A stretch of DNA of 55,435 nt. Origin: a virus. Taxonomy: Duplodnaviria; Caudoviricetes. The stretch is from positions 1 to 55,435 of IMG/VR virus record IMGVR_UViG_3300042934_000351; one strand, 5' to 3'. Both the position numbers and the translations under genes were made by a program. Each line of letters begins with the position of its first letter. Position 1 is the stretch's first letter. Under the pieces are notes generated by a model that saw only the letters and a program-made list of their open reading frames with translations, had not been told where the DNA came from and did no database searches. Below are positions 1,039-42,889 of the stretch, one piece after another.

Positions 1039-1052
1039 GATTCTCCTTGGTC

Positions 1053-1088
1053 CAGTGGCGGGGAGGGAGTCACCACTCCCCGCCACTG
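1053..1088. terminator. 13-bp intergenic stem-loop between the polymerase and resolvase genes, no U-tract
   Basis: CAGTGGCGGGGAG / CTCCCCGCCACTG. Confidence 0.5.
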
Positions 1089-1092
1089 TAGC

Positions 1093-12852: not shown

Positions 12853-13051
12853 CTCTTCTTCTCCTTTGATTTAGTTATGAATAAACTAATTGTCTATTCT
12901 TCTACCAGAAAACATTCTATTGTAGATGGCGATAGCAATCGCCTGAGCATAGCTATGCTCTCTACACATTGTGATAACGAATTTCTAGTGCTGAGCACGA
13001 AGTGCTAGCTGTATATTGCAATTCTCGGCGGAGCCCTCTGTCCTAGCGTCC

Positions 13052-13735: not shown

Positions 13736-13748
13736 AGCCGATGCCGTG

Positions 13749-14531: not shown

Positions 14532-14561
14532 TAGAGCGTTGCCCCTCATGCTCTCGGAAAG

Positions 14562-17500
14562 TTGGTCCTCGTGGCTCGCGACTGGTCCTCGTTCGGCGGT
14601 ACGAGCAACGACGACGCCCAGGATGTTGCGCCCGCGAAGGGAACCGACTGGTCGCGCTTCGGCGGTACGGGAGTCAGCAACAAGCCGTGGGAGCAGGGTG
14701 TCGGCTGGCAGGCCGGTGGCCAGATGGGCTCCACGGCCAACGCCTTCGACAACGAGTTCTACGACAAGTGGAACCAGGACATCGAGAAGGCTCAGAAGGA
14801 GAACCAGCTTCTCGACCTGTACGACAAGAACCGCAAGTTCACTGGCATCGTCACCCGCGACGACGCAAAGCACGGTGTCAAGTTCGGTGACGTCTATCGA
14901 GACGGCGAGAAGCAGTTCAACATGCTCGACGACGCGGACATCCCGCGCGCTGAAGCGTACCAGATGCTCGCCCGTGTCACGCTCAGCGACGATGAGCTGG
15001 CTCACGCGCAGAACCAGGACCGTCTCGAAGAGATGGTCGAGGACAAGCGACGCGTCAGTGAGAACGACGCGCGTAAGGGCCGCTCAGCCAAGGCGTTCGA
15101 CGACAAGGTGCAGTCCCGGCAGGAGGAGTTCGTCGCCGGTCAGGGTGACGAGGCGCTCATTGTCGGTGCCAGCGCGGGAGGCGCCGCAGCTGCTCTTGGT
15201 ATCGCCGCCACCGCTGCAGCAGCAACTGGTGTAGGCCTCCCGGTTGCTGCACTGCTCGGTATCGGCGCACTTGGTGTCGGCATCGGTGCTACCGGTGGGC
15301 TCATGAACAAGGACCTGCTCAGCGAGAACGCCGCTCGACAGCAGATTCTCATCGAGGAAGCGAACCGGCGCAAGGACGGTGCCGGAGTCGCTCAGTTCCT
15401 TCGGAGCTTCGGTGAGGTCTACGGCCAGTCGATCCAGCCTGCTACCAACATCGTCATGGGTGGTCAGGACCTCATCGCGGGTGGAGGGAAGTGGAACAAT
15501 GAGTCGGACTGGTACGCCACGGACCCCGAAACCGGAGAGTCTCTTCGGCACGGCTTCTGGGACGCTGCTCGGTTCGGGGCAGGCGCTGTCGACGCTTTTG
15601 GAAGCTCAGCCGGAGCAGGTCGAATCGCGTACGTGGGAAGCATCGGAGCTTCCCTACTGGGCCAGGGCACACAGCTCGGGTACCAGGGCGAGATCTTCAA
15701 CGACCGGTCCGGGGAGTTTCAGAGTATCTACACCAACGAGCAGGGCGAAGCGGACCCGTTCCGCGCCGCCAGCGCGTGGGGAGCGTTCGGCATCGACGCC
15801 GTCCAGTCCCTCGGAGTGCAGGGGATGCTCTCATCTTCGATTCGGCGAGGTCAGGGAACCACTGGTCTGGCCAACGAGAGAGTCACAGCTGGTGGTCGGT
15901 CGTTCACGCTTGACGCCGATGGAAGAGCTACAGGTCGAGCTGGCTTCGATGTATCCTTCCTGGCTCCTTCTGAGGCCTTCCGAGGTGTCACAGCTGCAAG
16001 CCTTCTCCGACTCAAGAACCGCGGCAATGTCGTAACCGCAGACGAGCTCTACCGTGCCGTCCGGAACATCGAGAACAAGGCTGGTGCTGGCTGGGGCGCG
16101 ACTCTGACGACCGGCCTCGCGGAAGGCTACGAGGAAGGCGTGCAGGCCCTGCTCAACCAGTGGGCGACCGGTGAAGAGTTCGACCTCGACGAGATCGTTT
16201 CCGGCGCGACGCAGGGTCTGAGCGCAGGTCTCGGTATGGGTGCTGCAGGCGCGCTCATGGCGAGGGGTGGAGACAAGAGGCTCCGCGACCAGGCCAATGC
16301 TGCCCGCGTCGTCACTGCTCGCCCGGACGAGATGGATGCTCTCAAGCCCATCTCGGACGAAGAGTGGAGCAACATGACGGACACGCAGAAGCGCGTGGCC
16401 GCCAACCTCAACACGGTCGAGACCGCGGCCATGCAGACCGCGCTCGGCAACGTGAGTCTCCAACAGGCGAAGACGATCCTGCTCAAGGACCCTGCTGCTC
16501 AGCAGCGCCTGGACATCGCGCGCATAGCGCTCAGCGAAGCAGAGATGCGGAACGCTGCTCCCAACACCAAGTCCTACATGCGCATCACAGCGTTCGAGGA
16601 CACGAAGATTCCTGGCGACAAGGTCCAGGCCTCGTTCGCTCGTGTCGGTGAGCTCATCGAGGACCAGCGCGTGGCCCTGGAGCTCATGGCTCGTGGCGGC
16701 GCGGCTGACCAGCAGATCGACCCCGAGACCGTGCAGATGGCCGGAGAGGCCGTCGCCGAGCTCGACCAGCTGGTGCCCTGGATGCAGAACCAGATGGTCG
16801 CGTTCTCTCGAAGCAACCGTCGCGAGCGCGCATTCATCATGGACCAGATCAATGCGGTGCTGGACCACTGGGGCTCGGGCACGCCGGTCGACACGAACCT
16901 CAGCCTCCCGGAAAACCTCGTCACGACGGACCCCGCGCTGGCTCTGAGCCGTGCTTACGCGGTCAGCATCAACTTCGCTCGTGACCCGATCGACCAGAAC
17001 ATCTCGTTCCAGCTGCTCGTCCCCACAGTCTCGCAGACGATGACTGAGATGAACGCGAACCAGACGATTCAGGTCTCGTACTCCATCCTCGACGCGATCG
17101 GCGGAGACTTCGACGGTGACCGTATCCGGTCCGTCCAGCGTCTCGCCACGAGCCCTGCCGAGTTCCGCCGTGCTCGTTCGGGTCAGCGCTCTCTCATGAG
17201 CGACCGGACCAGTGCCATCGCTGAGCGCCACTTCGAAGAGGCCTGGCTCGACAACTACCGCCAGGCAGCACAGTCGCAGCAGATGCAGGACCTTCTCCTG
17301 CGCACACGCGCGAACGTGCGCTTCGCCATTCGTGATCAGGTCGACGCCGACCCCATCCTGCAGCAATACATCTCTCAGGCCTTCGCCCAGATCGAAACGG
17401 GGTCGAAGACAGCGATCAAGGACTTCGTGACTGCCGTCATGAAGGACACTCGCATTGCACCGAGGCTGCTTGCTAAGGGAGCCGACGGCCTGTTCAACGT

Positions 17501-20500
17501 TCCGGAGAGGCTCAACCGCCTCTTCAGCAATGCGATGGCGGACTTCAGTCAGCGACTCAGTGTCGTGACGGCTCCCGACCCCATCGTGTACGATGTCAAG
17601 GACCCCATCCCCATGAAGCAGGGTGGGCCTGTCATTCGTGAGCGGCGCGCGGTAACGGCTGGGCGCACCATGTTCCAGGAGAGCCCGGCAGCTCAGATCT
17701 TCCGGATCTTCCAGGAACTTCGTTACTCGCCGCTCCGAACCCCGGTGGAGGCACGCCACCTCGTCGACCGGGAAGAGCCTCTCCTGGCCGACCTGCAGGC
17801 TCTGTACCTGCAGATCGGCCAGGGTGAGGTTGAGAGTGTTGTCGAAGCGGCGTACGCCGACTCCGAGGTCAACGCTCGCGTGATCGCTTGGACGCAGCAG
17901 ATGTCCGACGAGAGCGCTCGTCAGGGTGAGCGCATCCCCGTGGCGGTCCTGGCCTCGATGGCTGTGCCTCACTTCGGTCAGGACGGTCGCTTCGACGGCT
18001 ACGTGACGCTGACGCAGTCCCTGCTGGAGCGCTCGATCGCCATCGACGAGTCCAAGTACGGGCCACTCATCTCGGGTGACCCGAACCTGCAGGCTCGCTT
18101 CACCAAGCTCCGTGAGATGACGAAGCCGCCTCGCTCGGACTCGAAGGCCCCGGTTCACAAGAAGCGTGCCGGTGCGGCGTTCGTGTATGTCTACGGCCAG
18201 ATGTCGGTCCGTGACCTGACCGAGGTCCACGGTTCGATCCTCAACGACCAGGCCACGATCGACGAGCTCTACCGCTCGTACCGTGACCAGGACTACCACG
18301 GTCGCCACTCGTGGATGAAGTCGGCTAAGACCAGTGGACAGTACCCCGAGTTCATTCGTGAGGGCGACCTGCCCTACACGGAAGAGACGGCACTCTCCGC
18401 AGGCGTGTCGCCCTACCGGGTGCTCATCGACTCCATCGAGGAAGCTGGAAACTTCGACCTGAGTGTCGACGAGAACGGTAACCCGACAGGTATCGTGGCT
18501 CGCCAGAGCGGGCAGGTCTCGACGGACATGCAGGCCATCGTGACGGAGATTCAGGAAGGCATCAGCCTCGCGGCTCTTCCTGAGAACCGAGAGCTCACGC
18601 TGGAGAACCTGCAGCTCTTCCTGGCTCAGAACCCTCAGATCAGCCAGGCAGTGATCGGCCTCGCGGCGTACGATCCCAAGATGGCAGCTGTGTTCGCTGA
18701 TCTCAACGCAGCAAACCCGCGCATGGCCCCCTGGCTGTACGAGGCCCTGCTCCTGCCGCCCAAGACGGCTGAGCTGAACATCCTGATGAACACGGCGATC
18801 CTCTCGTACCGCGCCCTCGACATTGCCCCGCAAGAGGTGAGCGACCTTGACGATGACCCGACTGGTCACGTGCGTGACTACGAGAAGCTCGATGACCGCT
18901 TCCACCAGCTCTTCTTCAAGCTCGCCGCAGCAGACCGCTCTGGCATGCGTATCGCTCAACTGTTCCGTGACGTGGAATCGATCACGAACCGTGGTGGCGG
19001 GGTAGACGAGTTCATCCGTCTCCTGAACAACAAGTACCGTGGCAACCAGGCACCCTTCGTGGCCTGGTACCGTGACGTGGCGTCCTTCGACGCCTCTGCC
19101 ATGATGCGCTTCGGTGCGCCGGTCGCAGGTACCGAGCAGCGCAAGAGCATCAGCGAGCTCAAGATGGCAACCGCAGGTATCGCTCAGACGATCCAGAAGG
19201 AGCGCGAGGCTCAGGCCGCTGTGACGGACCTGCTGGCGAAGGCTCGTGAAGAGCGCCGTCAGGGAGTCGAGACGCAGAACGGCCCACGCATGGCGCTCCG
19301 CGAGGCCATCGAGTTCGTTCGTAAGTTCGAAATCGGCACCGGCCCGAACGAGATGATCGACTCGCTGACCGCCTCGCTCGAAACCTTCTTCGCGAAGGCG
19401 GCAGACAAGGGCGTCGGACCCGACGAGTTCGCCCCCGCCGCCGCTCTGGAAGTCATGTTCCATGAGTTCGCGATCAACTACTCTCGTGTGGACACCAGCA
19501 CCGGCACGATCGACCTGGATACGGTCATCCGTAACCCCTCGATCCTGCTGCGCGGTCCGATCACGATCATGGATAACTCGGGCAACGAGTTCGAATGGCT
19601 TCCTGAGGACCCCAGCCTCACGGACGAGGATGCAATCGAAGATCGCATCCTGACTCAGATCGAAGACTTTGTTCTCGACAACTGGGATGGGACGACTCGG
19701 GCTGACAACATGCCCCAACTGTCTCAGGGCGTCGCGCAGAGCGTGATCCGCCGCATGCTTGAGCCTTCGGTCTGGCAGATGACTGCTGACGGACGGGGCT
19801 TCCAGCAGAGGAGCCTGGTCGACGACAGCCTCGCAGGCATGCTCTCGCGCGACGCCTACAGCCGACTGTACGGTGACAACAACGCTCCGATCAGTGAGAG
19901 GGACAATGGCTCCATCATGGAGTGGCTGGCCCTCGTCAACTCGTCCAGTGGAGCGTACGGCGGCAACGTCGAGGTTCAGCGCTACCTGAGCAAGTACCTC
20001 GCTCACGCCGCGTCCAGCCTCAAGTCCCTCAGCCCCAGCGACGCGCAGAAGCTCGTGTCGCAGACGATGCACGAGCTCGGCTTCATGCTCCAGAAGGTTG
20101 GCGACATCGTCAACCAGTACGCAGACGACGACTGGAACCTGCCCGCTGACGAGACCGACCCTGACGGTCGCCCGGTCGACATCCTGACCAGTGCCCGTCT
20201 CTCGGCTCGTGCAGAGCGGTCTGACCGCTGGCTCCGGTCCCGCTTCGGGTCGAGCCTGCCGGACGGCACCACGCGAGAGATCGTGGACCAGTGGATGCTG
20301 CAGGAGATCAACGCCCTGACCTCAGCAGCAGTCAGCCAGAACCTGCGTGACACGTGGATGAAGGCTGTCCAGGACCAGGACGACGCAGCTGCTCGTGTCG
20401 CGATGGACCAGATCCAGTCGGCCCTCTCAGACAAGAGCATCCAGGACAAGGTCAGCGAGGCGCAGTTCGTTCGGGACGTGTACCTCAACAAGGAGCCTGT

Positions 20501-23500
20501 CAAGGCCCTCATCGAGATGTACGGCTACCCGCCCTCGGGCGATGGAGATGCCGCAGCAGCACGCCGTACCCTGCTCAGCAACTACGTCAAGACTCTCGGC
20601 ACAGACCTCACGAACCGTGCGCGCTGGGCCGACGCGTCGATCCACCGTGTCGCCAACGCTACTGGTCGGATGATCGGTCGTCGTGAGGACCCTGGCACCA
20701 CCGCCGCCTCGGAAGAGGACTGGAACGCTGTCTCGCGCGCGGTCATCTCCTACGAGCTCATCCGTCTCGCGGGCCAGCAGGGTGCGAGCGAGATTTCGGC
20801 GTCGGAGTTCCCGAAGCTGGAGTACAAGGGTGATGGCGAGCTCACCGACGAGCTGAAGAACTGGGACCCGAGCCAGCAGTACGTCTTCGATGACCTGCTC
20901 GACATCAAGAGCCCGATGGTTCGTGCGGCGGCGTACATCAGCCGTCAGTCGCGTCGTGACAACGACGTGACGATCGGCGACCTCGGTCGTACTCTCGACA
21001 CTGGTCTCGGTGACGAGTACCGCCTGCGGCAGTGGACGATCTTCATCCCGCCGACCGCCAAGGAAGCCAGCGACCGCTTCGACTCGAACGCCGCTCAGTA
21101 CCTCGTCGCGATGGCTGGTCAGCCGCAGGACGTGGTCGGTATCGCTGCCGCCACGCCGTCTGACCCCGACATCGGCAAGGTCGCTCAGGTCGGCGGGCTG
21201 GATGCCAACCTGGTGTCTGTCTCGCTCGCCAGCGAGAAGGGCAACACGCCTCCTCTGACGGTCGGTGACCTCGTCTTCGGCAACCCGTTCCGTTTGCGGC
21301 TCAACACCAGCAGAGTCGTCGGTGGCAAGGTGACTGCAGGCACGATGATGCCGCTGGCGAACCTGCATGGTCGCTTCGTCAAGACCTTCAAGGTTGGCGG
21401 CGTCGAGTACCCGATGGAGCACATCGCGGTCTTCCACGAGGCCAGCCAGTACTGGGTGCTTGACCTCGACCGTGCTCGCGAAGTCTTCAAGCACATGCCT
21501 CGGTCCACGGTCATCGAGATGGAGATCGTGACGCAGGCTGAGAAGATCGTCATCAAGGATGACACGGTCACAGGCCTCGCGCACAGCCAGTACTTCGACG
21601 GTGTCATCGACCCTGTCACCGACATCGACTCGCCTCGCTCTCTCATCGGCGCTCAGCTCAGCGCTGCAGGCGGCTCGGGTCGTATGGAGCAGCAGAACGC
21701 TCTGCAGGCGGCGAAGAAGGGCCTCCGCGCCCTGCTCCGTGCAGACCTGTTCTCTCGCCGCGAGCGGGCCGTGATGGAGACGCGCTGGGCAACAGACCTC
21801 TCCTACGTCCTGCACCTCAAGGCGATGGGTGTCGCTCAGAAGGGCAAGAACCTCGTCGAAAACGACTGGCGCTTCTACAACTCGTTCTACAAGACCGAGG
21901 AAGTCCGTCACTTCGTAGCTTCGGAAGAGGGTCTCTGGTCGGCAGAGCGCGTCATTCAGTGGCAGCGCGAGAACCCCGGCCTCCCGATCACGGATGAGAA
22001 GGGCCTCGGCCCGACCGCTCGCCTCGTCGTGCCGCCACAGGCCAAGCTCCGTGCCATGTACGGTGACTTCGGTCCCAGCGCGCGTACTCTGCCCAACGGC
22101 CAGGTGTGGACCGGAGACCCTGCAGACATCCCCGTCTTCGACGGTGTCACGACTGCTCGCCTCATCGAGCAGATTCCGGGTGTCTTCAACAAGACCAAGC
22201 TCAACCTGCTCGGTACTGAGTTCGGTGCACGTCGCCCCTTCACCAAGTACTCAGGCACTCGGTTCATGGACTACGAGAAGGTCAAGGAGAGGGCCAACCG
22301 TCTCGTCGTCCGTGACCAGAAGCGTGCACGCCTCGACGCTGACCGTCAGACGAGCCTGACCTTCAACGCCGCAGAGGTGTCGAAGCCCGGTATCGACCTG
22401 CTGAACAAGAGTATTCGTCTCAGCCCGATCTTCGACTGGCGTCGTTACGGCATCCCGATCGATGCCAAGACCGACCCTGGCACGCAGTTCATGGCAGCAC
22501 GTGCAGCAGCAGACCTCACGGCCTCTATGAACCGCGACGGTCGGAAGGTCGTCCTGGAGTTCCGCGAGGTCGACACATCGCGCACGCCTGGCGATGGAGT
22601 CCTGACCGCAGCAACGTGGGGCGACACCCGCGTTCCGGGTCTCGAAGCCGGTCCTGGCGACCTGCTCGTGGTCGATGTCGACTCCTGGACCGACGAGCAG
22701 CTCAACACGATCGCGTTCCGTCGTCTGGAGCAGTTCATGGAGAGCGGCGCGGACATCTTCCTCGCCACGACCGAGAGCACCACGAACCTCGGCATCCTCT
22801 CGCGCTACATTCAGCAGAGCCAGCGCTACGAGCAGATTCCAGGTTCGCCGAACCACTTCCGTGAGCGTGACTACGCACAGCCCCGGAGTGCAGACATGGA
22901 GGCGCTGGCAACCACGCTGACGTCGACGAACCCCATCTCGGGCGAGAACAAGACCCTCCTGTTCCACGGCTTCAACGTGGACATGGACGAGAACACGGCC
23001 AAGGTCAAGGACCCGGAGTACTTCAAGAGCCGCGAAGTCGCGATCGTCACGAACATCGTTCCGTCTCGCACCTACCCGGGCTTCGCTCTGCCGAAGACCG
23101 CGAAGACGCAGACTCAGGTCGTCCGCAAGGTCGCTGAGCTCACGATCAACCGTCCTGACTGGATGACGGACAGCGAGCACCGTGCCGTCACCCGTCTGAA
23201 CGACAAGTACAACAAGATGCGCGGCGGCGGGGAGTTCCCGTCCGGCGAGCTCCGCAAGGGTGACTTCATCCCCCAGGTGAAGGCAAAGCCCAACGGTGAA
23301 ATCCAGATCTACTTCCACCGCTACAAGCACAAGGACGTGCCGTGGTCACAGGTACAGGACCAGCTCGAAAAGCAAGACGGGATCGCGCGTACGACCAAGA
23401 GTGTCGATGCGAACTTCACTGGCTTCGAGGGCGAGGTCACCAACCTGGAGGCCTCGACCAAGCACGGTGCCCGTGTACGCCTGCGTGTCTCGCTCGGAGT

Positions 23501-26500
23501 GCTGGGCGACAAGAAGCAGGTCGCCCTCGCTGGTATGAAGTACACCATCTCGTCGGGTACTGGCTACACGCCTACCACGCGGCTCACTCCCGATCGTGAC
23601 ATCGACCTTGAGTCGGACTACGCGAGCCTGAGCGGCAAGAACGCCTGGCAGGGAACGATGTACAACCACCGTTCGGCGATCGTCGCCTTCGGCTGGGACA
23701 TGCGCGGGAAGCTGCTGGAGGCCTTCCGAGAGGCGACCGGCAACGTCGACATGACGGATGCTCAGCTCCGTCAGATTCTGCAGGACTTCTCGCGTCGTGC
23801 CGAGAAGCTGCCCGCCTCGTACCTGCGCGAGATCATCAGCGATCGTGGCCAGCTGGCCAACATCATGTCGAACAACGGCTCGCCTGTCGACTTCAACCAG
23901 CCTGGTCCTCTCGCGGGCTACGTTGAAGCGACGCTCGTCTACCTGATGGGGGCCGAGACCGCGGGTCCGGGCGACAACCCTGTCAACCACATCATGGGTC
24001 CGTTCGGAGGGCTCGTGCAGGGGCCTTCCTTCATGGGCGCGACAGGCCAGGAGCTCCCTCGCCTCTTCACAGAGTACTTCGACAGCCTGCCGCCCACGCA
24101 CGAGACGCGCAAGGACATCATCGCCACGATGCAGCAGAAGCTGGGTCGTGACAAGAACGGGTACTACATTCTGAACCCGGACTTCACGATCACGGCTGTC
24201 ACGCTCAAGAACGGCAAGATCGTTCGCTCGGAGACCGGTCGTCTTCAGATCGCAGAGGTCAACAGTACGGGTGACAACCCGACCTTCGACCGCTTCGCTG
24301 AAGACTCTGCAGGCAAGTACGAAGACTGGTCGCCCCACACGGCGGCGCTCTCGACCACTGCTCTCGGCACCACGCTCGCCCGCTCGAAGGACCTGCTCAG
24401 CTCGATCTTCCGTACCGTGACCGCAGAGCAGGTCCCGGAGATCACTCAGGCAGGCAAGAGCGGCGCTTCGATCCTCGATACCATGATGGACATCGGCAGT
24501 ACGACCGACAACGGCGCGTACCGCTGGTCGATGGACACGCCGTCGCAGGAGTGGTACCGCCAGGTGTCGCGCAACCTCGGCTGGGCGTACCGCGTCCCTG
24601 TCGATCCTGCCAAGTGGGCGTACCCAGACGACGAGGCCGGTAAGCAGACCGACCGTGAGCGCAAGTGGGACGAAGGTGTCAAGGAGATTCTCTCGGTCCT
24701 GCACCTCAAGGAGAACCAGTCGAGCCTGGTGCACTACTGGGTTCGCCAGACCATCGGACAGTTCGGGGACAAGGACCCCGAGAGCAAGGATGGCGACGTC
24801 ACCTTCGACCTCGCCATGCAGGCTCTGGCCGACATCACTTTCAATGTCAAGGCAAACGTGCTCCCGGTCGTCGACGCCGACGTTCCGATGCTGCATCGTG
24901 ATGACCTCGCCGCGATCTTCGAGGCGAACCGTTCACACCCGAAGCCGTGGCTTCTCCGTGAAGGTGTTGACATCCACACGCCGGTCCTGCAGTCCAAGAC
25001 AGTCATTCCTTCCGACTGGTCGGGCTTCGTGCACGTTGCCCTCGGGGTTGCAGAGACCGGGCAACGCAACTTCGACGCTATGAACCTCACGGCTGTCGAT
25101 GGCCTCCTGCAGTCCTACGCTCTCGGTGAGGACGCTCTGCGCGGCCTGCCGATCAGCCGCTCCGACCTGGTCGAGGCGAAGCTGTGGGACCCGCAGACCT
25201 CGCGCATCGTGATGAGCATCGACCCTCGGAAGAACGCGTACGCCAAGGAGCCGTCCATCCTGGACCCCGCGACGGCCACGCTCAGCACCATGTTCGGAGT
25301 CCAGCGTCAGGGCTCCCGCTGGCAGGGCGCTCGTAACCTGTCTCCCGAGCGCCGTCGTCGTGACCAGTACCGTGCGCGCTACCGCCGTGAGCGCGGTCTC
25401 TCCACCCCGGTCGAGACCGGCGTGCGGAACTTCCGACAGACCGGCGCACAGTACGTCAACGAGTCCACGACCAAGAACGGTGTGGTCCTCGCAGTTCACG
25501 ACCTCCGACACTTCACTACGCTGTTCAACCCGTTCCTGTGGCTCGGTGCAGGTGTCGAGATGACTGTGCGTAACGTGCAGGATGACCTCATCGGAACGCT
25601 GATGGGCACGGCGACAGGCGGAGCCTCTCGCCTCAACCCGATCAACTGGAGCAAGGAAGGTCAGCTGCGTCTCGCACAGTTCGCCAACACCCGCAAGGCC
25701 CTCGCAGAGAATCCCGCCTTCGCGAGCATGATGTACGGCGACATGCAGTTCAAGGACCCGCACATTCGCCGTAACTTCGTCACGAAGTTCACGGGCTTCC
25801 TCGGTCGTTCTGGCGACTGGATGCAGGATCCTACGTACGGCCAGCCGCAGAACACGATGGCTCGTCGATACGTCGAGGCTGTGCTGGACTCGTTCTCCAG
25901 CACTCCCGGCGTGGAAGTCAGCGAAGCGGCCCTGCTCTACAACCTGGAGAAGGACCCTCAGTACGTCAAGAAGAACTTCGCCGACGCGCACCGGTCCGCC
26001 ACTGCTCGTGTAGCCAACATGCGTTCACTCAAGATGACCTCGCTCGGCCTCCTTCTTCGGAGTGTCTACGAGATTCCGGGGTCCTCGCAGAACGGCGGCG
26101 TGCGCATGTTCGGCGACCTGTTCCTCAAGACCCCTCTCATGTACAGCGGGTACCTGGCGAACGTAGCCACCAACATGCTTGGCCTCAACACCGCCAATAA
26201 CCTGATCCTGATGTACCTCAACGGGCGGCGCGCAGGCAAGTTCGCTCGCCGTGCTCTCGGGGAGGCGTACACGAAGGATGGTATCATCGACCTGTCGTCG
26301 ATGATTGACACGCTGGACCTGACCCGCTCGATGGTCGCAGACGGTATCTCGGTCTCGTCCCTGTTCATGGCAGCGGCGTTCGCAGGCTCGACAGGTATGG
26401 CCAGCGGTGAGGACGAGGAGGAGCGTCGTCGTCGCAAGGCTATGCAGTACCAGGGTGGCGGAATCATCTACGACCCCCGTCAGATCGAGAACGACTGGCG

Positions 26501-28151
26501 GTCGAGCGAGTCCCTGTACCTGGACCAGTGGCCCGCTCTCGCTCAGCTCCTGCAGGTCGCAGAGACTGGCGGCGTGCCTCACTGGATCATCAAGCAGTTC
26601 ACGTCGCCCTTCCTCGGCGTCGCTCGGGCGGTCGAGACCGGTAACATGGAGCACATTAAGTGGGGCTTCCAGGACGTTCTCGGCTCGATGCCCCTGTTCA
26701 ACGAGACGATGGCGATCGAGGCGTCGCAGACCTTCGACATGCTCACGGCCCAGGCTGACGAAGAGCAGTACAAGGGCACGGACTCCGCCTCCATGAAGGC
26801 TCTCGGATTCTTGACCAAGGCTGTCATGGCCTACGAGTCGATGGTGCTTGAGTCGTCCTTCGCCAACATGATCTACCAGCAGGCCGACAAGTACGACCGC
26901 GATCCCTTCGTCATCCCCGAGAAGATGGCTGACGGCTCCTACGTTCGCGATCGTATGGACGTGCCGCGTCCGACTCGTGCGCTGGAAGACTTCTACGACC
27001 CGGAGACCGGCGAACTCCTGTCGGCCTACGCGGGTCGGGACTGGTTCCAGAGTACGACGGCAGGCTTCACTGAGAACCGCGCAACGTTCGCGTTCCTCAT
27101 GAGTCTCGGTACAGGCCTCCAAGGCTCGCAGTACTGGCGTAACAACATGGTGGCGAAGACCCGTACCATCGACAAGGAAGAGATGTCGCTGGACAACGCG
27201 GCGTCACTGGCGATGGGCCTCTTCCAGTCTCAGGGCTTCGCAGACGACCTGACGCGTCTGGAGAACGGTGAGGGCATCGACCAGTCCTGGCTGCTCTCGA
27301 CCTACGCAGAGGATGGTTCTGAAGAGCTCACCACTCTCGGTGCAGAGGCCGTCATCCGAGGCGTCTGGAACGGCTCGGTCAAGCTGGGCGACAAGTCCCT
27401 CGAAGGCCTCTACATTCCTTACGAGATGCGCGAGCAGCTACAGGACATGTTCCTGGATCAGTTCACGCAGGAGGGCGTTGACCTCGGTCTCAGCCAGGAG
27501 GATGCAGTCAAGCGCGCCAAGCTCATCGGATACGGCCCGTATAACGATAGCAGCGTCCCCGGCCTGTTCGACGCAATCTGGACGGACGAGCTGTCCTACG
27601 TGAAGAGCAACCGGTACTACCAGCTCAACACGACCTACGTGAACGGCCCGGACGGTAAGCCGTGGGCGACGGCGGTTCAGCGTAACACCTTCTTGGGTGC
27701 TATGAGCTTCCTGACCCCGTACTACAACGATGAGACCGGTCGCGGCCTGCCCACAGACCAGGTCCTGAACTCTGTGGACTATGGCTCGAACCTCAACACT
27801 GGCCTCCGCGCTCTCGAAAAGACTGACGAATCGTGGGTCATCCCGACCCCCGAGGAAATCGGCGAGAGCATCGAGAAGGCGATCGAGAAGCTCGGTAACA
27901 AGAACTTCACGCAGAGCCCCACTTACGACCAGTACTCTGGGTACGGGCGTCGCGGGTACGGCGGTGGTGGCGGTGGTGGCGGTGGCCGCAACTACGCCAA
28001 CAACTCCCTGATGCCGTTCCTGAACGGTATGAAGGCTCCGTACCTCGACAACATCCCCCAGCTGTACATCAACAACATCAACCCGCGTCGCTCTGACATC
28101 AGGCGTGAACGGTTCTCCAGCGAGCGAGGAAGGCTGAACCAGTGGCAGTAA
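14562..28151 (+). CDS. Giant virion protein (4,529 aa), putative single-chain two-barrel virion RNA polymerase / ejection protein; start may be GTG 14571
   Basis: Uninterrupted 13.6-kb ORF. Beta'-like RDP (aa 807) and IQVSYSILDAIGGDFDGD (D849-D853). Beta-like GENKTLLFHGFNVDMDE (aa 2794) and VRLRVSLGVLGDKKQVALAGMKYTI (K2984-K2993). Hydrophobic N-terminal helices; no Cys seen. The CDS is certain; the function is inferred. Confidence 0.8.
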   Translation: MVLVARDWSSFGGTSNDDAQDVAPAKGTDWSRFGGTGVSNKPWEQGVGWQAGGQMGSTANAFDNEFYDKWNQDIEKAQKENQLLDLYDKNRKFTGIVTRDDAKHGVKFGDVYRDGEKQFNMLDDADIPRAEAYQMLARVTLSDDELAHAQNQDRLEEMVEDKRRVSENDARKGRSAKAFDDKVQSRQEEFVAGQGDEALIVGASAGGAAAALGIAATAAAATGVGLPVAALLGIGALGVGIGATGGLMNKDLLSENAARQQILIEEANRRKDGAGVAQFLRSFGEVYGQSIQPATNIVMGGQDLIAGGGKWNNESDWYATDPETGESLRHGFWDAARFGAGAVDAFGSSAGAGRIAYVGSIGASLLGQGTQLGYQGEIFNDRSGEFQSIYTNEQGEADPFRAASAWGAFGIDAVQSLGVQGMLSSSIRRGQGTTGLANERVTAGGRSFTLDADGRATGRAGFDVSFLAPSEAFRGVTAASLLRLKNRGNVVTADELYRAVRNIENKAGAGWGATLTTGLAEGYEEGVQALLNQWATGEEFDLDEIVSGATQGLSAGLGMGAAGALMARGGDKRLRDQANAARVVTARPDEMDALKPISDEEWSNMTDTQKRVAANLNTVETAAMQTALGNVSLQQAKTILLKDPAAQQRLDIARIALSEAEMRNAAPNTKSYMRITAFEDTKIPGDKVQASFARVGELIEDQRVALELMARGGAADQQIDPETVQMAGEAVAELDQLVPWMQNQMVAFSRSNRRERAFIMDQINAVLDHWGSGTPVDTNLSLPENLVTTDPALALSRAYAVSINFARDPIDQNISFQLLVPTVSQTMTEMNANQTIQVSYSILDAIGGDFDGDRIRSVQRLATSPAEFRRARSGQRSLMSDRTSAIAERHFEEAWLDNYRQAAQSQQMQDLLLRTRANVRFAIRDQVDADPILQQYISQAFAQIETGSKTAIKDFVTAVMKDTRIAPRLLAKGADGLFNVPERLNRLFSNAMADFSQRLSVVTAPDPIVYDVKDPIPMKQGGPVIRERRAVTAGRTMFQESPAAQIFRIFQELRYSPLRTPVEARHLVDREEPLLADLQALYLQIGQGEVESVVEAAYADSEVNARVIAWTQQMSDESARQGERIPVAVLASMAVPHFGQDGRFDGYVTLTQSLLERSIAIDESKYGPLISGDPNLQARFTKLREMTKPPRSDSKAPVHKKRAGAAFVYVYGQMSVRDLTEVHGSILNDQATIDELYRSYRDQDYHGRHSWMKSAKTSGQYPEFIREGDLPYTEETALSAGVSPYRVLIDSIEEAGNFDLSVDENGNPTGIVARQSGQVSTDMQAIVTEIQEGISLAALPENRELTLENLQLFLAQNPQISQAVIGLAAYDPKMAAVFADLNAANPRMAPWLYEALLLPPKTAELNILMNTAILSYRALDIAPQEVSDLDDDPTGHVRDYEKLDDRFHQLFFKLAAADRSGMRIAQLFRDVESITNRGGGVDEFIRLLNNKYRGNQAPFVAWYRDVASFDASAMMRFGAPVAGTEQRKSISELKMATAGIAQTIQKEREAQAAVTDLLAKAREERRQGVETQNGPRMALREAIEFVRKFEIGTGPNEMIDSLTASLETFFAKAADKGVGPDEFAPAAALEVMFHEFAINYSRVDTSTGTIDLDTVIRNPSILLRGPITIMDNSGNEFEWLPEDPSLTDEDAIEDRILTQIEDFVLDNWDGTTRADNMPQLSQGVAQSVIRRMLEPSVWQMTADGRGFQQRSLVDDSLAGMLSRDAYSRLYGDNNAPISERDNGSIMEWLALVNSSSGAYGGNVEVQRYLSKYLAHAASSLKSLSPSDAQKLVSQTMHELGFMLQKVGDIVNQYADDDWNLPADETDPDGRPVDILTSARLSARAERSDRWLRSRFGSSLPDGTTREIVDQWMLQEINALTSAAVSQNLRDTWMKAVQDQDDAAARVAMDQIQSALSDKSIQDKVSEAQFVRDVYLNKEPVKALIEMYGYPPSGDGDAAAARRTLLSNYVKTLGTDLTNRARWADASIHRVANATGRMIGRREDPGTTAASEEDWNAVSRAVISYELIRLAGQQGASEISASEFPKLEYKGDGELTDELKNWDPSQQYVFDDLLDIKSPMVRAAAYISRQSRRDNDVTIGDLGRTLDTGLGDEYRLRQWTIFIPPTAKEASDRFDSNAAQYLVAMAGQPQDVVGIAAATPSDPDIGKVAQVGGLDANLVSVSLASEKGNTPPLTVGDLVFGNPFRLRLNTSRVVGGKVTAGTMMPLANLHGRFVKTFKVGGVEYPMEHIAVFHEASQYWVLDLDRAREVFKHMPRSTVIEMEIVTQAEKIVIKDDTVTGLAHSQYFDGVIDPVTDIDSPRSLIGAQLSAAGGSGRMEQQNALQAAKKGLRALLRADLFSRRERAVMETRWATDLSYVLHLKAMGVAQKGKNLVENDWRFYNSFYKTEEVRHFVASEEGLWSAERVIQWQRENPGLPITDEKGLGPTARLVVPPQAKLRAMYGDFGPSARTLPNGQVWTGDPADIPVFDGVTTARLIEQIPGVFNKTKLNLLGTEFGARRPFTKYSGTRFMDYEKVKERANRLVVRDQKRARLDADRQTSLTFNAAEVSKPGIDLLNKSIRLSPIFDWRRYGIPIDAKTDPGTQFMAARAAADLTASMNRDGRKVVLEFREVDTSRTPGDGVLTAATWGDTRVPGLEAGPGDLLVVDVDSWTDEQLNTIAFRRLEQFMESGADIFLATTESTTNLGILSRYIQQSQRYEQIPGSPNHFRERDYAQPRSADMEALATTLTSTNPISGENKTLLFHGFNVDMDENTAKVKDPEYFKSREVAIVTNIVPSRTYPGFALPKTAKTQTQVVRKVAELTINRPDWMTDSEHRAVTRLNDKYNKMRGGGEFPSGELRKGDFIPQVKAKPNGEIQIYFHRYKHKDVPWSQVQDQLEKQDGIARTTKSVDANFTGFEGEVTNLEASTKHGARVRLRVSLGVLGDKKQVALAGMKYTISSGTGYTPTTRLTPDRDIDLESDYASLSGKNAWQGTMYNHRSAIVAFGWDMRGKLLEAFREATGNVDMTDAQLRQILQDFSRRAEKLPASYLREIISDRGQLANIMSNNGSPVDFNQPGPLAGYVEATLVYLMGAETAGPGDNPVNHIMGPFGGLVQGPSFMGATGQELPRLFTEYFDSLPPTHETRKDIIATMQQKLGRDKNGYYILNPDFTITAVTLKNGKIVRSETGRLQIAEVNSTGDNPTFDRFAEDSAGKYEDWSPHTAALSTTALGTTLARSKDLLSSIFRTVTAEQVPEITQAGKSGASILDTMMDIGSTTDNGAYRWSMDTPSQEWYRQVSRNLGWAYRVPVDPAKWAYPDDEAGKQTDRERKWDEGVKEILSVLHLKENQSSLVHYWVRQTIGQFGDKDPESKDGDVTFDLAMQALADITFNVKANVLPVVDADVPMLHRDDLAAIFEANRSHPKPWLLREGVDIHTPVLQSKTVIPSDWSGFVHVALGVAETGQRNFDAMNLTAVDGLLQSYALGEDALRGLPISRSDLVEAKLWDPQTSRIVMSIDPRKNAYAKEPSILDPATATLSTMFGVQRQGSRWQGARNLSPERRRRDQYRARYRRERGLSTPVETGVRNFRQTGAQYVNESTTKNGVVLAVHDLRHFTTLFNPFLWLGAGVEMTVRNVQDDLIGTLMGTATGGASRLNPINWSKEGQLRLAQFANTRKALAENPAFASMMYGDMQFKDPHIRRNFVTKFTGFLGRSGDWMQDPTYGQPQNTMARRYVEAVLDSFSSTPGVEVSEAALLYNLEKDPQYVKKNFADAHRSATARVANMRSLKMTSLGLLLRSVYEIPGSSQNGGVRMFGDLFLKTPLMYSGYLANVATNMLGLNTANNLILMYLNGRRAGKFARRALGEAYTKDGIIDLSSMIDTLDLTRSMVADGISVSSLFMAAAFAGSTGMASGEDEEERRRRKAMQYQGGGIIYDPRQIENDWRSSESLYLDQWPALAQLLQVAETGGVPHWIIKQFTSPFLGVARAVETGNMEHIKWGFQDVLGSMPLFNETMAIEASQTFDMLTAQADEEQYKGTDSASMKALGFLTKAVMAYESMVLESSFANMIYQQADKYDRDPFVIPEKMADGSYVRDRMDVPRPTRALEDFYDPETGELLSAYAGRDWFQSTTAGFTENRATFAFLMSLGTGLQGSQYWRNNMVAKTRTIDKEEMSLDNAASLAMGLFQSQGFADDLTRLENGEGIDQSWLLSTYAEDGSEELTTLGAEAVIRGVWNGSVKLGDKSLEGLYIPYEMREQLQDMFLDQFTQEGVDLGLSQEDAVKRAKLIGYGPYNDSSVPGLFDAIWTDELSYVKSNRYYQLNTTYVNGPDGKPWATAVQRNTFLGAMSFLTPYYNDETGRGLPTDQVLNSVDYGSNLNTGLRALEKTDESWVIPTPEEIGESIEKAIEKLGNKNFTQSPTYDQYSGYGRRGYGGGGGGGGGRNYANNSLMPFLNGMKAPYLDNIPQLYINNINPRRSDIRRERFSSERGRLNQWQ

Positions 28152-30163
28152 AGATGGAGTTCGACGAGATCGAGGAGTTCTCCGACTGGTATACCGAATA
28201 CCGAGTCGACCACCGGGGTGCCCTCATTCCCAACTCGTTCACGGACTGTGCGGCTCGCAAGCTGCGTATGTACCAGGCATACAAGACTGAGATGGACGCT
28301 CGTGTCGCTCAGTACGAGAAGTACGAGAAGCAGGCCAACGCGGAGGTCGTGTCCCGCAAGCCGGACCTCGCCAACATCTCGTCGGGCGAGTCTGCAGGCT
28401 TCATCCGCCGCATCTCGCGCAATGTCGTACAGCACACGCCGAACGTGTACATCAACAACGAGTTCGATGATGAGAGCATCCCCGGAGTCCTCTCCCGCTA
28501 CATGCTCAAGTCGAAGATCATCGGCGACGACATGTACTCGAACAACATGCAGCAGAACCTCATCACGACGTTCCGTCGTGCCGCCGCCCTCGGCTTCGAC
28601 TGCGTGATCCCTGTCCTGGTTCAGGACAATCGCAAAAAGTGGTTCATGAAGTACGACACGATCTACTACCGCGATGTGTTCCCCGAGCCGGGCGTGAAGG
28701 ATATTCGTCAGGCAACCAACGTGTTCGTCCGTCGCTACCTGACGCGCGGCGAGGTCCATCAGCTCGCCAAGAACCTGGTTCCCGGTTGGGACCACGCGGC
28801 TCTCAAGTACCTCCTGGGCACCATGCCTGCCAGTCGTGAGTACACGGACTACGAGAACCGCAAGCACAGCGTGAACCACGAGGCCTACGAGGTCATCACC
28901 TGGTACAACTCTGCGGGTGAGGCGTTCCTCACGTGGGCGGCATCCTCGAAGATCCTGCTCCGCATCGAGAAGAACAAGCACCCCGCGAAGGAGCACCCGG
29001 TCTTCTTCTTCATCCCGGAGAAGGATGACCAGCAGCCTCTTGGCAAGAGCCTGCTGTCGCTGACCTATGGTCGGCAGGAGTTCCAGGACCTCTTCATGAA
29101 CGGCGTCATGAAGATGCTGGTGCGGAACATCAACCCGCCCATCATCGGATACGGCACGGTCAACGCCTTGCCGAACCTCTCTCCTGGCAAGTACACGGAG
29201 ATCAGCAATCCTCAGGCCCGCATCGAACCCTTCGAGGTTAACACGCAGGCCATGATGATGTTCGGTCAGACGAGCCAGCAGAACGCGGCCAACATGACTC
29301 AGCTCATCGGTGCTGCGGATCAGCAGATGGCAGCGCAGTCCACGGGTGGGCTGATGAGTCAGACGCCCCAGGGTGTCGAGGCTCAGCAGCAGATGGTCGA
29401 CATCACGACCAACAACTACCAGAAGGCGATGGAAGAGTTCTTCTCTCGCTACTGCTCCTATGCTCTGACGATCTATTTCCAGGAGCTCAAGAACACGAAG
29501 AGCGTCACGGTCACTGCTGACGTGCGCAAGGAGCTGATCAACGAGGGCGTCCCGCCCGAAGCCTTCCGTCACGAAGAGTACACCGACGAGGACGGCGTCA
29601 AGCACGAGGCCGACGGTACTGGTCTCAAGGACGGCTCCCTCAAGATCGACTTCTCCGAGATGGCGATCGAGTACTTCGTGCAGTGCGTTCCGGGCTCTCT
29701 CGTTGAGCTTGAGGATGAGAAGCAGATGCGTCTGCTCAAGGAGGTCTTCGTCCCGCTCTCGCAGGCGATGCCCGCCATCGCCCAGACCGGCGACAAGGCG
29801 GCTCTGGACAGCGCGTCCAAGGCGATGCAGTACATCGTCCAGAAGACCATCGAGCTCTCCGGCTCTGCTCACAGCACCGAGATCAAGAAGATCTTCTCGG
29901 GCGACAGCGAGGGTGCTGAGGAGAAGGATGACCGTGTCGAACAGCTGGAGCAGATTCTCGGCGGGACGCTTAGCGAGAACGGTGAGCAGTCCGAACTCTT
30001 CGCGGAAGCCTTCAAGCAGCAGCAGGAGCAGATTCGTGTCCTCACCGAAGGCATGACCGCGATCATGCAACGGATGGCTCCGGGAATCACCGGGGGCCAA
30101 ACCGATCCACTCGCGGCGGGGGCCGGGGCCGCGCCCGCCCTCCCATCACCCGTATCGGCCTGA
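28142..30163 (+). CDS. Probable portal protein
   Basis: 673 aa, helical, directly before the capsid gene; size and P.GKSLL...NPP spacing fit a podovirus-type portal. Largely a synteny call. Confidence 0.7.
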   Translation: MAVKMEFDEIEEFSDWYTEYRVDHRGALIPNSFTDCAARKLRMYQAYKTEMDARVAQYEKYEKQANAEVVSRKPDLANISSGESAGFIRRISRNVVQHTPNVYINNEFDDESIPGVLSRYMLKSKIIGDDMYSNNMQQNLITTFRRAAALGFDCVIPVLVQDNRKKWFMKYDTIYYRDVFPEPGVKDIRQATNVFVRRYLTRGEVHQLAKNLVPGWDHAALKYLLGTMPASREYTDYENRKHSVNHEAYEVITWYNSAGEAFLTWAASSKILLRIEKNKHPAKEHPVFFFIPEKDDQQPLGKSLLSLTYGRQEFQDLFMNGVMKMLVRNINPPIIGYGTVNALPNLSPGKYTEISNPQARIEPFEVNTQAMMMFGQTSQQNAANMTQLIGAADQQMAAQSTGGLMSQTPQGVEAQQQMVDITTNNYQKAMEEFFSRYCSYALTIYFQELKNTKSVTVTADVRKELINEGVPPEAFRHEEYTDEDGVKHEADGTGLKDGSLKIDFSEMAIEYFVQCVPGSLVELEDEKQMRLLKEVFVPLSQAMPAIAQTGDKAALDSASKAMQYIVQKTIELSGSAHSTEIKKIFSGDSEGAEEKDDRVEQLEQILGGTLSENGEQSELFAEAFKQQQEQIRVLTEGMTAIMQRMAPGITGGQTDPLAAGAGAAPALPSPVSA

Positions 30164-30219: not shown

Positions 30220-31884
30220 ATGGCTGCACCGGTCGTTCAGAAGGACACCCTGACCAAGCATCAGCTCGTCCTTCACAAGGTGATGGGGATCAAGTCCCCC
30301 ATCAACGGAATGTTCTCGGCATCCGAGCTCAATCCCGGCGAGTTCATGAACTCGCGCGTGGTGGCCGTGCCGGACATCCGCGTCGACGACTACATCGTCG
30401 ACTCCGACATCGCGCGCATCGGCGCCGATCACTACTCCGGCTCGGAGTACACCCAGAAGTGGAAGAACGGCATCCCGCCGATCGAGTGGCGCTACTACTC
30501 GACCTCGCGGCACCGCAGCTTCGGCTACACGGTGTTCAAGGAGCAGGAGCAGTTCACCCCGATCAAGAACCTCCCGCAGGAGTACCTGGCCCGGAAGATG
30601 GCGACGACCGTCCTCCGCGACCACGACAAGTACCTCCTGCTCGCGATCGTCCTCGGCCGCATGACCGGCAAGCTGGTCGCCCGCACGTCGAACGACACCT
30701 ACACGTCGGTCATCGAGAACTCGACCGGCATCAGTGCCGCCGAGGTCGCGTGCACCGGCAACGCGGCGGACTACAAGTGGGTCGCCCAGCCGGGCGAGAC
30801 CTCGGACAACGAGATCCAGCCCACGTTCGCCACGATCAAGGGCATGGTCCTCGACGCGGCCGACCCGCTCAAGACGCTCGACGCCCTGACGACGATGTTC
30901 TCCGAGAACTGGTTCGACTCGAACCTCCCGAACTCGGATCGCTTCTTCCTCATCACGTCGGCGCTGGAGCTGTCGTTCCGCGACGCGCTCATCAAGGCCG
31001 GTACCTACGTGGATGGCGGCTTCGACACCTATAAGAACGCGGACACCTCCGGCGTGGTCGGACCCGCGTTCTTCGGCAAGCTGCGCGGCTGGACCTTCGT
31101 GAAGATCCACCCCGAGTTCATGCCGAAGGTGTTCGTCGACGCGAGCAACATCGTGGACCCGTCCCCGACGCTGACCGGTGTCGGCACCGCCGCTTCGCGC
31201 TCGCTGAAGCAGGTCGTCGCCCTCGCCGCCTACAAGGGCGCGGCGCAGACGCACGACTTCTTCGCGGACAAGAAGCAGGAAGAGGGTGGCGTGCGCGGTG
31301 ACTTCACCGAGTACGTCCAGCACATGTCGTACGACGCCTGGGTCATCGACCAGATGTCCGATGGCATCGTGCCGATCTTCCTCCCCGCCGACCTCGACGG
31401 CAACGGCACGACCGACGTCAACTACACGCCGGTCAACGACTCGTTCACGCGCGTCGCAGCCGCTCTCGCCACGGCCCGTGCTCAGCTCGGCACTGCCGGT
31501 TCGTTCTACCCGGCCTCCGGCCCGGTGGTCAACCCGGCGCGTCCCGGCTGGTACGAGCAGCCTTACGACCGCACCAACGCGATCAACCAGGCGCTGGCTG
31601 TCAAGGAGGCTGGAGACTCCGCGAAGAACTACCCGGCACTGCCTGGCGACACGGCGGTCGATGTCAACGACCTCAACGGTGTCATCACGGCGGTCACGGC
31701 GGCGGCGACGGCTCGCACCAACTCGGCTGCAGTCACGCTCGGCGCGGTCATCAAGTACAGCAACAACCAGCTGTACCAGGTCACCACGGCGGGTACGACC
31801 GCAGGTGCCCAGCCCAGCACGGTCGGCGTGGACATCGGCGAGACCATCGCCGACGGCACGGCCCAGGTCAAGCGCATCCTCTAA
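30220..31884 (+). CDS. Major capsid protein with C-terminal extension
   Basis: Very strong codon bias, AGAAAGGA RBS, follows the portal gene, hairpin downstream; SYDAWVI resembles the end of an HK97-type core. Confidence 0.75.
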   Translation: MAAPVVQKDTLTKHQLVLHKVMGIKSPINGMFSASELNPGEFMNSRVVAVPDIRVDDYIVDSDIARIGADHYSGSEYTQKWKNGIPPIEWRYYSTSRHRSFGYTVFKEQEQFTPIKNLPQEYLARKMATTVLRDHDKYLLLAIVLGRMTGKLVARTSNDTYTSVIENSTGISAAEVACTGNAADYKWVAQPGETSDNEIQPTFATIKGMVLDAADPLKTLDALTTMFSENWFDSNLPNSDRFFLITSALELSFRDALIKAGTYVDGGFDTYKNADTSGVVGPAFFGKLRGWTFVKIHPEFMPKVFVDASNIVDPSPTLTGVGTAASRSLKQVVALAAYKGAAQTHDFFADKKQEEGGVRGDFTEYVQHMSYDAWVIDQMSDGIVPIFLPADLDGNGTTDVNYTPVNDSFTRVAAALATARAQLGTAGSFYPASGPVVNPARPGWYEQPYDRTNAINQALAVKEAGDSAKNYPALPGDTAVDVNDLNGVITAVTAAATARTNSAAVTLGAVIKYSNNQLYQVTTAGTTAGAQPSTVGVDIGETIADGTAQVKRIL

Positions 31885-42882: not shown

Positions 42883-42889
42883 GAGAATC

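Follow-up and report, generated by a model that had tools for sequence, protein, structure and literature searches.

The phage genome IMGVR_UViG_3300042934_000351 (Duplodnaviria; Caudoviricetes), analysed here over its whole length of 55,435 nt and hereafter called the window, raises the question of what is encoded by one rightward gene that occupies about a quarter of it. In a preliminary description, made from the letters of the DNA, its product was read as a single-chain RNA polymerase (RNAP) with two double-psi beta-barrels (DPBBs), carried in the virion. Following up this proposal, we consider that the gene probably encodes a packaged virion protein with a complete two-barrel RNAP core of the cellular type, which would be ejected and transcribe the first phage genes. 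The open reading frame (ORF) described earlier is genuine, running uninterrupted on the + strand from 14562 to 28151 (4,529 codons), but its start has to be moved. The first codon of the frame is TTG, with no spacer after GGAAAG, whereas GTG 14571 has GGAAAG nine bases upstream and opens the sequence MARDWSSFGG. Since the latter agrees with MATDWSAFGG, with which the two closest homologues begin, translation probably starts at GTG 14571, giving a predicted product of 4,526 amino acids (aa) and 499.5 kDa. Residue numbers used here count from TTG 14562, and the coordinates of the features discussed are collected in Table 1.

Two polymerase-like modules in one chain

The motifs quoted in the preliminary description are all present in the translation and form two separate blocks. 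On the beta-prime side, they are FARDP at residues 805-809 (R807) and DFDGD at 849-853. On the beta side, they comprise MEALA at 2779, PISGENK at 2791, FHGFNVDMDE at 2801-2810, GELRKGDFI at 2895-2903 (G2900), EGEV at 2956, a lysine block VRLRV...KYTI at 2972-2996, which includes GDK (2982-2984) and GMK (2991-2993), and DIDL at 3013-3016. The residue number 2794 formerly given for the end of FHGFNVDMDE was wrong, as this motif ends at 2810. By eye, ARDPIDQNISFQLLVP...IQVSYSILDAIGGDFDGD parallels the bacterial beta-prime strings NRAPTLHRLGIQAFEP...IQLHPLVCAAYNADFDGD, and GDKKQVALAGMKYTIS parallels the beta string GDKMAGRHGNKGVIS; we take both likenesses as leads only.

Conservation of these residues was counted in hmmsearch alignments of 157 family proteins, namely, the window protein, seven relatives from a word-indexed search and 149 from an exhaustive search, taking for each column only the rows that span it. 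In the segment proposed as the counterpart of beta-prime NRxP, R807 and P809 are found in 148/148 rows, and the putative Mg-binding catalytic loop retains D849, D851, G852 and D853 in 150/150. Within the same block, S815 occurs in 144/148 rows and G874 in 149/150. On the beta side, E2810, at the end of FNVDMDE, is kept in 128/134 rows; it is the proposed equivalent of the acidic pair in the beta motif GYNxED. The proposed counterpart of the lysine pair in beta GDKxxxRHGxKG has K2984 in 125/132 rows (R in three of them), G2991 in 124/132 and K2993 in 129/132, while G2900 and K3026 are present in 133/134 and 132/134 rows, respectively. The conservation of DFDGD and of the lysines in homologues, which the preliminary description had singled out for checking, is thus borne out. 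Judged from sequence, the motif blocks exceed chance expectation, because their key residues are fixed in a family whose subgroups share only about 22-30% identity. The distance from the catalytic D to the first beta lysine amounts to 2,037-2,286 aa, with a median of 2,125, in all 125 members that reach 4,000 aa and have both blocks.

Both blocks lie within segments predicted to fold like the active-site parts of beta-prime and beta, which strengthens the two-barrel reading. The AlphaFold2 (AF2) model of aa 640-1500 has a mean predicted local distance difference test score (pLDDT) of 73.8, and 10-residue blocks over model residues 31-360 average 71-93. When this model was compared with 48,161 PDB representative chains by VIA-align, the top 13 matches were all largest subunits of multisubunit RNAPs (Z 7.2-11.1, 155-267 aligned residues), belonging to yeast Pol I, plant Pol IV and V, archaeal A', vaccinia, AR9, phiKZ, Pol III, African swine fever virus, M. 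tuberculosis (beta-prime), human Pol I, Pol II, and the plastid enzyme. Among them are 7aoc_A (Z 11.1, root-mean-square deviation (rmsd) 6.9, 254 aa), 2pmz_A (Z 10.5, rmsd 4.3, 227 aa), 6rfl_A (Z 10.4), the AR9 chain 7s00_d (Z 9.6, rmsd 4.0, 155 aa) and the phiKZ chain 7ogp_A (Z 7.6). They are followed by designed and natural double-psi barrels, such as 7dww_A (Z 6.7) and 7dvc_A (Z 6.1). A best Z of 7-8 is common in searches of this kind; in the present case, Z is above 8 in each of the first eight rows, and a single protein kind fills the first 13. The best 50 Foldseek rows for the same model are likewise all beta-prime or largest subunits, with E-values (E) from 3.3e-3 to 1.9e-2. The RxP and DxDGD signature of a beta-prime-type barrel is therefore found in the giant protein, within a module predicted to have the matching fold.

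The second segment, modelled over aa 2330-3330, gives a consistent picture at lower confidence, the blocks over the module residues averaging pLDDT 30-88. In a Foldseek search of the PDB, the best 50 rows are all beta or second-largest subunits, 11 of them at E<=1e-3 (best 3.2e-4). In BFVD, the giant proteins of phages Burro, TinyTimothy and Truong come first (E 1e-27 to 3e-9), then two unnamed proteins; RNAP subunits from large DNA viruses (pithoviruses, poxviruses and an algal virus), Rpb2-like ones among them, occupy rows 7-12 and 14. Proposed counterparts of the acidic residue and the lysine pair of a beta-type barrel are thus found as well, in a segment whose model is of low confidence. 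Folding the two segments separately and comparing them with known structures, as had been suggested, accordingly matched aa 640-1500 to largest and aa 2330-3330 to second-largest RNAP subunits. The set of non-redundant relatives leaves out the duplicate loci L015, L018, L021, L023 and L025, as well as L009 and L019, and the alignments A2 and A3 are without L010, which is too short, and without P0005-P0008.

At the sequence level, an hhalign comparison links the family to four jumbo-phage beta-prime ORFs, at a probability of 89% (E 2e-6); the aligned stretch spans 47 columns, located at the catalytic loop. Control runs with neighbouring ORFs gave a probability of 0.4% or less in 22 comparisons, and the four ORFs themselves match phrog_2986 (E 1e-60 to 1e-78). 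No beta subunit was found by hhalign among 11 neighbouring ORFs of these jumbo-phage loci. The four genes, which carry AIGGDYDGD, lie at 8687-10273 of L012, 703-2232 of L013, 7572-9083 of L026 and 3277-6246 of L014; one of these loci is on a 212-kb contig, and in L014 the N- and C-terminal parts of beta-prime are fused in a single ORF of 990 aa.

The giant-gene family and known virion polymerases

By its sequence, the window protein is a member of the giant-gene family of the Microbacterium EK/Burro podophages. It shares 31% identity with Burro gp27 along its entire length, exceeds 4,400 aa, is encoded directly before the portal gene, and stands in a genome with the same divergent two-arm plan, in which the replication genes run leftward, and the giant, portal and capsid genes rightward. 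For the region aa 601-1200, matches with 26-30% identity were found in 11 phage records, ten from Microbacterium phages (Burro, Araxxi, Arete, Gshelby23, Hannabella, Casino and DoTi, some with two records) and one from the Arthrobacter phage MissAmericana; these proteins are annotated as hypothetical or, in three of the 11, as tape measure protein. At the DNA level, the longest match of the giant gene to a deposited phage is only 42 nt. Relatives were found more widely, with seven from the word-indexed search and 13, 12 and 2 loci from viral, metagenome and genome contigs, respectively. An exhaustive profile search with aa 640-1500 returned at least 200 representatives, each standing for a cluster at 50% identity, with E<=1e-3; of these, 179 reach E<=1e-10 and 150 reach E<=1e-30. 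Among the 150 representatives listed, nearly all have 4,400-4,900 aa and match in the same position. One family ORF, at 463-6309 of L027, is open over at least 1,949 aa and is carried by a contig of 51.7 kb that was binned with a Coriobacteriales genome, which hints that the family reaches into gut actinobacteria.

In the cultured phages, these genes have been noticed for their size. The genes of more than 13 kb, represented by Burro gp27 and by gp31 of ArMaWen, TinyTimothy and Akoni, all in cluster EK, were called their most striking feature in 2020 (PMC7302621); in these phages, too, the gene accounts for a quarter of the genome. In that paper, Jacobs-Sera et al. considered the roles of the giant proteins unclear and reported neither similarity to the N4 virion RNA polymerase nor motifs in common with it; they also described in Burro virions a protein of ~250 kDa, larger than any other predicted product, and assigned it to gp27 or a processed part of it. 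A genome announcement of 2021 speaks of a giant protein of unknown function (PMC8281081), one of 2023 mentions the gene for its size alone and assigns no role (PMC10720438), and one of 2026 on EK2 does not discuss it (PMC13460095). The remark in the preliminary description that giant actinophage genes had been left as unknown function agrees with the first three of these accounts. No polymerase assignment for these giant proteins was found in the literature covered, which did not extend to subscription journals and supplementary files, and the polymerase reading is new relative to the papers on these genes.

The composition and outer parts of the giant protein are distinctive. It contains no Cys in 4,529 residues, compared with 70 Cys in the 11,303 residues of 30 other ORFs of the window (P about 6e-13 at equal frequency), and the 133 family members of at least 4,000 aa have a median of 0 Cys (range 0-8). 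It follows that the giant protein lacks the cysteines by which cellular beta-prime binds zinc. Near the N-terminus, a Gly/Ala-rich segment is the sole region of the protein to score at least 1.5 on the Kyte-Doolittle scale (window 19), and two N-terminal transmembrane domains have been predicted for Burro gp27 (PMC7302621). Within the family, conservation is highest in the C-terminal third, which gave no match in Pfam or PHROGs, nor any known fold or family. In the ESM Atlas, this third retrieved only unnamed viral clusters (score 0.96), along with PF18857 LPD38 at 0.94, which is a lead only.

The virion polymerase of phage N4 (Schitoviridae) has a T7-like single-subunit fold, different from the two-barrel architecture. 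With respect to lifestyle, it nevertheless offers the model proposed here, being a giant protein (~3,500 aa) that is packed in a podovirus head and expelled to start transcription (PMC13434306). Closer in architecture is gp66 of phi14:2, a crAss-like phage (PDB 6VR4), likewise a large virion-packaged podophage protein with a DFDxD-type loop (10.1101/2020.03.07.982082), whose single chain contains two double-psi barrels, as proposed for the giant protein (PMC10770324). However, in gp66, QDE-1 and the P23-45 enzymes, the connector leads from DPBB-B to DPBB-A, that is, the beta-like barrel comes first (PMC10770324), whereas the beta-prime-like module comes first in the giant protein; the order DPBB-B, connector, DPBB-A within about 800-1,400 residues, typical of QDE-1, gp66 and gp96, is not seen in it. 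Moreover, gp66 is absent from the Foldseek rows listed for both modules and from the VIA-align rows listed for the beta-prime model, which still leaves room for kinship.

The protein gp96 of the Thermus phage P23-45 (PDB 8H2M), a giant virion protein of 5,002 aa, is a two-barrel RNAP with the same DFDGD loop, and its authors discovered the polymerase by the same motif logic. Its active fragment is compact, with both barrels inside residues 327-1124, whereas those of the giant protein are about 2,100 residues apart. A second barrel close to the first, as in gp96, was considered and rejected, as the lysine block and the beta-like fold lie about 2,100 residues downstream. The structural likeness of gp96 to the beta-prime model is weak (8h2m_A, Z 5.5, rmsd 3.4, 102 aa), and gp96 belongs to a long-tailed siphovirus in which it doubles as tape measure, whereas the giant gene is that of a podophage. 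At the catalytic loop, the nearest enzymes are the non-virion RNAPs of jumbo phages (phiKZ 7OGP, AR9 7S00), with AIGGDYDGD against AIGGDFDGD. They consist of several separate polypeptides instead of one chain, and the sequence likeness is confined to about 47 columns. Jumbo phages also pack a virion RNAP, and in their enzymes both beta and beta-prime are split into pieces (PMC7598289). Barrel order, spacing and lack of cysteine thus set the giant protein apart from crAss gp66, P23-45 gp96 and the jumbo-phage enzymes alike. If the assignment is right, virion-carried two-barrel polymerases would extend from phages of Bacteroidota (crAss-like) and Thermus and from jumbo phages to small actinobacterial podophages, and a 13-kb gene would acquire a function that can be tested in harmless phage-host pairs already in culture. 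The new chain topology, with beta-prime before beta, would furthermore bear on how the two-barrel core can be wired and on how an enzyme of 500 kDa passes through a tail.

Proposed mode of action and alternative explanations

Since the giant gene comes first in the late structural operon, just ahead of the portal gene, its product would be synthesised late and packed into the capsid. It would probably enter the actinobacterial host by ejection together with the DNA. Ejection and packaging may be the roles of the hydrophobic segment near the N-terminus and of the C-terminal third, which is conserved. Once inside the cell, the polymerase core would transcribe the first genes, those of the leftward replication arm, without the host enzyme. 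Virion association is suggested, by analogy, from the ~250 kDa band of Burro, together with the place of the gene in the structural operon and its overlap with the portal gene. We infer the virion role, ejection and early transcription from the place of the gene, the Burro band, the N4, crAss-like and P23-45 precedents, and the lack of any other recognisable RNAP gene. On this last point, PF00623 and PF00562 have no match in the complete genome at E<=10 and match in 14/14 control genomes, and Pfam scans of 20 other large ORFs of the genome detected no RNA polymerase; the earlier statement that no other RNAP gene is present consequently stands, in the sense of no other recognisable one. The T7-like family PF00940 also had no match in the genome, a result that is uninformative since the control genomes were without match too; the Pfam scan of the whole giant protein detected no such domain. 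That the two barrels meet in one active site is likewise an inferred element of the proposal, as are the predicted catalysis, packaging, ejection and choice of template. The spacing of ~2,100 residues suggests that much of the C-terminal part of beta-prime and of the N-terminal part of beta, or replacements for them, lies between the modules.

Several observations weigh against the polymerase reading. Both folds were built on alignments of only 14 sequences. The aa 640-1500 model has no Foldseek row at E<=1e-3, and its template modelling (TM) scores are 0.15-0.20, with partial cover of large chains. The aa 2330-3330 model is of low confidence (mean pLDDT 60.8, with 330/1,001 residues below 50), and its TM-scores are 0.09-0.14, each match covering part of large chains. 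Neither a bridge helix nor a trigger loop could be recognised after the beta-prime barrel; some structural alignments extend to about model residue 460 (9mu7_A, 29..460 against chain 352..1091), and residues 365-430 have pLDDT below 50. The 1,330 residues between the modules (aa 1001-2330) gave no lead in the ESM Atlas, with scores of 0.77 or less. Searches of Pfam and PHROGs with the whole protein returned nothing significant. With the modules alone, they gave nothing relevant for beta and, for beta-prime (aa 640-1000), a best match to phrog_2987 that is weak (E 0.046) and falls at profile positions 402-449, where true jumbo-phage subunits match. The beta-prime profile had no significant match to PDB sequences (E 0.2-1.1); three of its seven rows are phage beta-prime subunits at the catalytic loop, DFDGD being aligned, without significance, to DYDGD of AR9 beta-prime (7s00_d, 7s01_d) and to phiKZ 7ogp_A. 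The beta profile returned only three unrelated rows, and a single-sequence search of PDB sequences with aa 401-1400 only repeat-protein noise. The hhalign link to jumbo-phage beta-prime is partly circular, because the four loci had been fetched by a catalytic-loop pattern. The case for virion association is taken over from a relative, at 31% identity. Finally, an arrangement of beta-prime followed by beta, with ~2,100 residues in between, has no solved single-chain precedent, and contact between the barrels is not certain.

The same two modules could also function after processing, the giant protein being a polyprotein that is cut into beta-prime-like and beta-like halves, which then assemble like a multisubunit RNAP instead of working as a single chain. 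We judge this unlikely. In its favour, the Burro product was described as "likely processed", with a band of ~250 kDa (PMC7302621), about half of the 499.5 kDa predicted here. The least conserved stretch of the family, around aa 1860-1980 (window averages 0.28-0.34), lies between the modules, and the split jumbo-phage enzymes mentioned above provide a parallel. However, no cleavage site or protease was identified, and almost all chains listed by the exhaustive search are of full length; the shorter ones could be contig ends. A two-barrel polymerase might alternatively have another task, such as priming DNA replication, copying RNA or acting as a non-packaged middle or late transcriptase; template and product are not readable from sequence, and the two-barrel fold is also used by the archaeal PolD and by RNA-dependent enzymes such as QDE-1 (PMC10770324, PMC9508822). 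This appears quite improbable, given that the top structural matches are all subunits of DNA-dependent RNAPs, PolD and QDE-1 not being among the best 50 rows listed, that the phage has its own family A DNA polymerase, Prim-Pol and primase-helicase-like gene, and that the giant gene stands in the structural operon beside the portal gene and has a homologue in Burro virions.

A purely structural or ejection protein, an internal core or tape measure in which the barrels persist as inactive relics, would fit the tape measure annotation of some homologues and, as regards the hydrophobic N-terminal segment, the absence of cysteine and the large conserved C-terminal third, a protein that is ejected; P23-45 gp96 combines polymerase and tape-measure roles in one chain. 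Relics, however, would not retain the metal-binding aspartates in every row, and the lysines in about 95% or more, at such low identity between subgroups, so that we regard this explanation as very improbable. The narrower assignment to the tape measure proteins of tails was rejected, as the gene precedes those of the portal and capsid and is not found among tail genes with a long tail length to set. An active two-barrel polymerase, carried in the virion, thus remains our preferred interpretation of the giant gene.

Hairpin arrays, non-coding region and other features of the genome

The N4 virion polymerase uses hairpin promoters, and hairpins are also found upstream of the leftward arm of the window. 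Two abutting 6-bp hairpins, with loops AGCA and AGCT, precede the leftward ORF at 12852, which is the first gene beyond a non-coding stretch of ~900 bp. Arrays of two or three AGCA-loop hairpins are present in six of the 14 genomes scanned (the window, Burro and four metagenomic relatives), where they stand 72-165 nt upstream of a leftward ORF of 108-123 aa. Their stems vary between phages and yet stay complementary: in four aligned arrays, 36/36 cells pair, and five of the nine pairs are changed on both sides. This covariation score was attained in 0/500 shuffles, and the tandem pair in 0/300 shuffles of the window. The AGCA loop belongs to the + strand, which is the template for transcription in the leftward direction. 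The array is a candidate promoter or another regulatory element read by its structure; that it serves as promoter of the giant polymerase we put forward as a hypothesis only.

The boldest combination of these elements, a single cysteine-free, permuted RNAP of 500 kDa that passes through a podovirus tail into a Gram-positive cell, is possibly cut into halves of ~250 kDa and starts at the AGCA hairpins, is in our opinion decidedly unlikely as a whole. If true, it would mean that the N4-style hairpin-promoter strategy was reinvented by an unrelated polymerase fold.

Table 1. Position of the giant gene, its modules and motifs, and associated features in the window (relatives where indicated)
Feature	Position	Strand	Remark
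Giant gene	14571..28151	+	4,526-4,529 aa, ~500 kDa, no cysteine
Gly/Ala-rich hydrophobic segment, aa 197-248	15150..15305	+	long enough for two membrane spans
Beta-prime-like module with double-psi barrel, aa ~667-1000	16560..17561	+	model residues 28-361 of AF2 model m5e843a317674
R807-D-P809	16980..16988	+	counterpart of beta-prime NRxP segment
D849-F-D851-G852-D853	17106..17120	+	putative Mg-binding catalytic loop
Beta-like module, aa ~2789-3239	22926..24278	+	model residues 460-910 of AF2 model m8f57dda08201
E2810	22989..22991	+	proposed counterpart of beta GYNxED acidic pair
G2982-D-K2984...G2991-M-K2993	23505..23540	+	proposed counterpart of beta GDKxxxRHGxKG lysine pair
C-terminal third, aa 3330-4529	24549..28148	+	best conserved part of the family
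Portal gene	28142..30163	+	50% identity to Burro gp28 (annotated portal); overlaps end of giant gene by 10 nt
Probable major capsid gene	30220..31884	+	54% identity to Burro gp29
Two abutting 6-bp hairpins	12928..12960	+	76 nt upstream of leftward ORF starting at 12852
AGCA arrays in relatives	L001 17821-17869; L002 6286-6319; L003 6248-6279; L016 5045-5076; L004 4610-4661		

The window represents a complete genome, its first and last 127 nt being identical, and the virus record is classed as having direct terminal repeats and as 100% complete. The leftward arm carries genes for DNA polymerase A, a PD-(D/E)XK nuclease, a helicase, a Prim-Pol and a primase-helicase-like protein. The giant gene heads the rightward structural operon and is followed by the portal and then the capsid gene, as in Burro, whose gp29 has been proposed as capsid subunit (PMC7302621). 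The rightward arm further includes an M23 peptidase with a peptidoglycan-binding domain.

The non-coding stretch, 12853-13748, contains no ORF of note and has a lower G+C content (0.53 in the 12-14 kb window). It is rich in repeats, with three copies of TATTAGAAGC, an inverted pair of 29 nt around CATGCGAGACATG, whose members stand 214 nt apart, and several hairpins that are perfect palindromes. Motifs related to these occur again in L002, L003 and L016, and the stretch could be an origin or control region. Over 12700-14700, hairpins followed by a T-run number six, against 1.5 expected. For the same interval, Rfam gave no match, and a scan for sigma-70-type promoters found one site, with 1.7 expected. 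Three elements occupy 14154-14215, in the interval that separates the first leftward gene (13749-14093) from the giant gene: the hairpin GTAGCC-TTG-GGCTAC, a second hairpin, GTGAC...GTCAC, and the palindrome CTACTATATACATAGTAG. The second hairpin and the palindrome are conserved in L002 and L016 and, as a variant, in L003.

Elsewhere in the genome, the only tRNA call of ARAGORN, a tRNA-Thr (CGT) at 45232-45314 on the - strand, is antisense inside the coding ORF 44941-46077 and was set aside as a probable false positive. Two tandem repeats were also noticed: three units of 42 nt at 34655-34780, at the start of the gene region for the M23 peptidase and peptidoglycan-binding domain, and two units of 111 nt at 43581-43802, inside an ORF of 585 aa (42770-44527).

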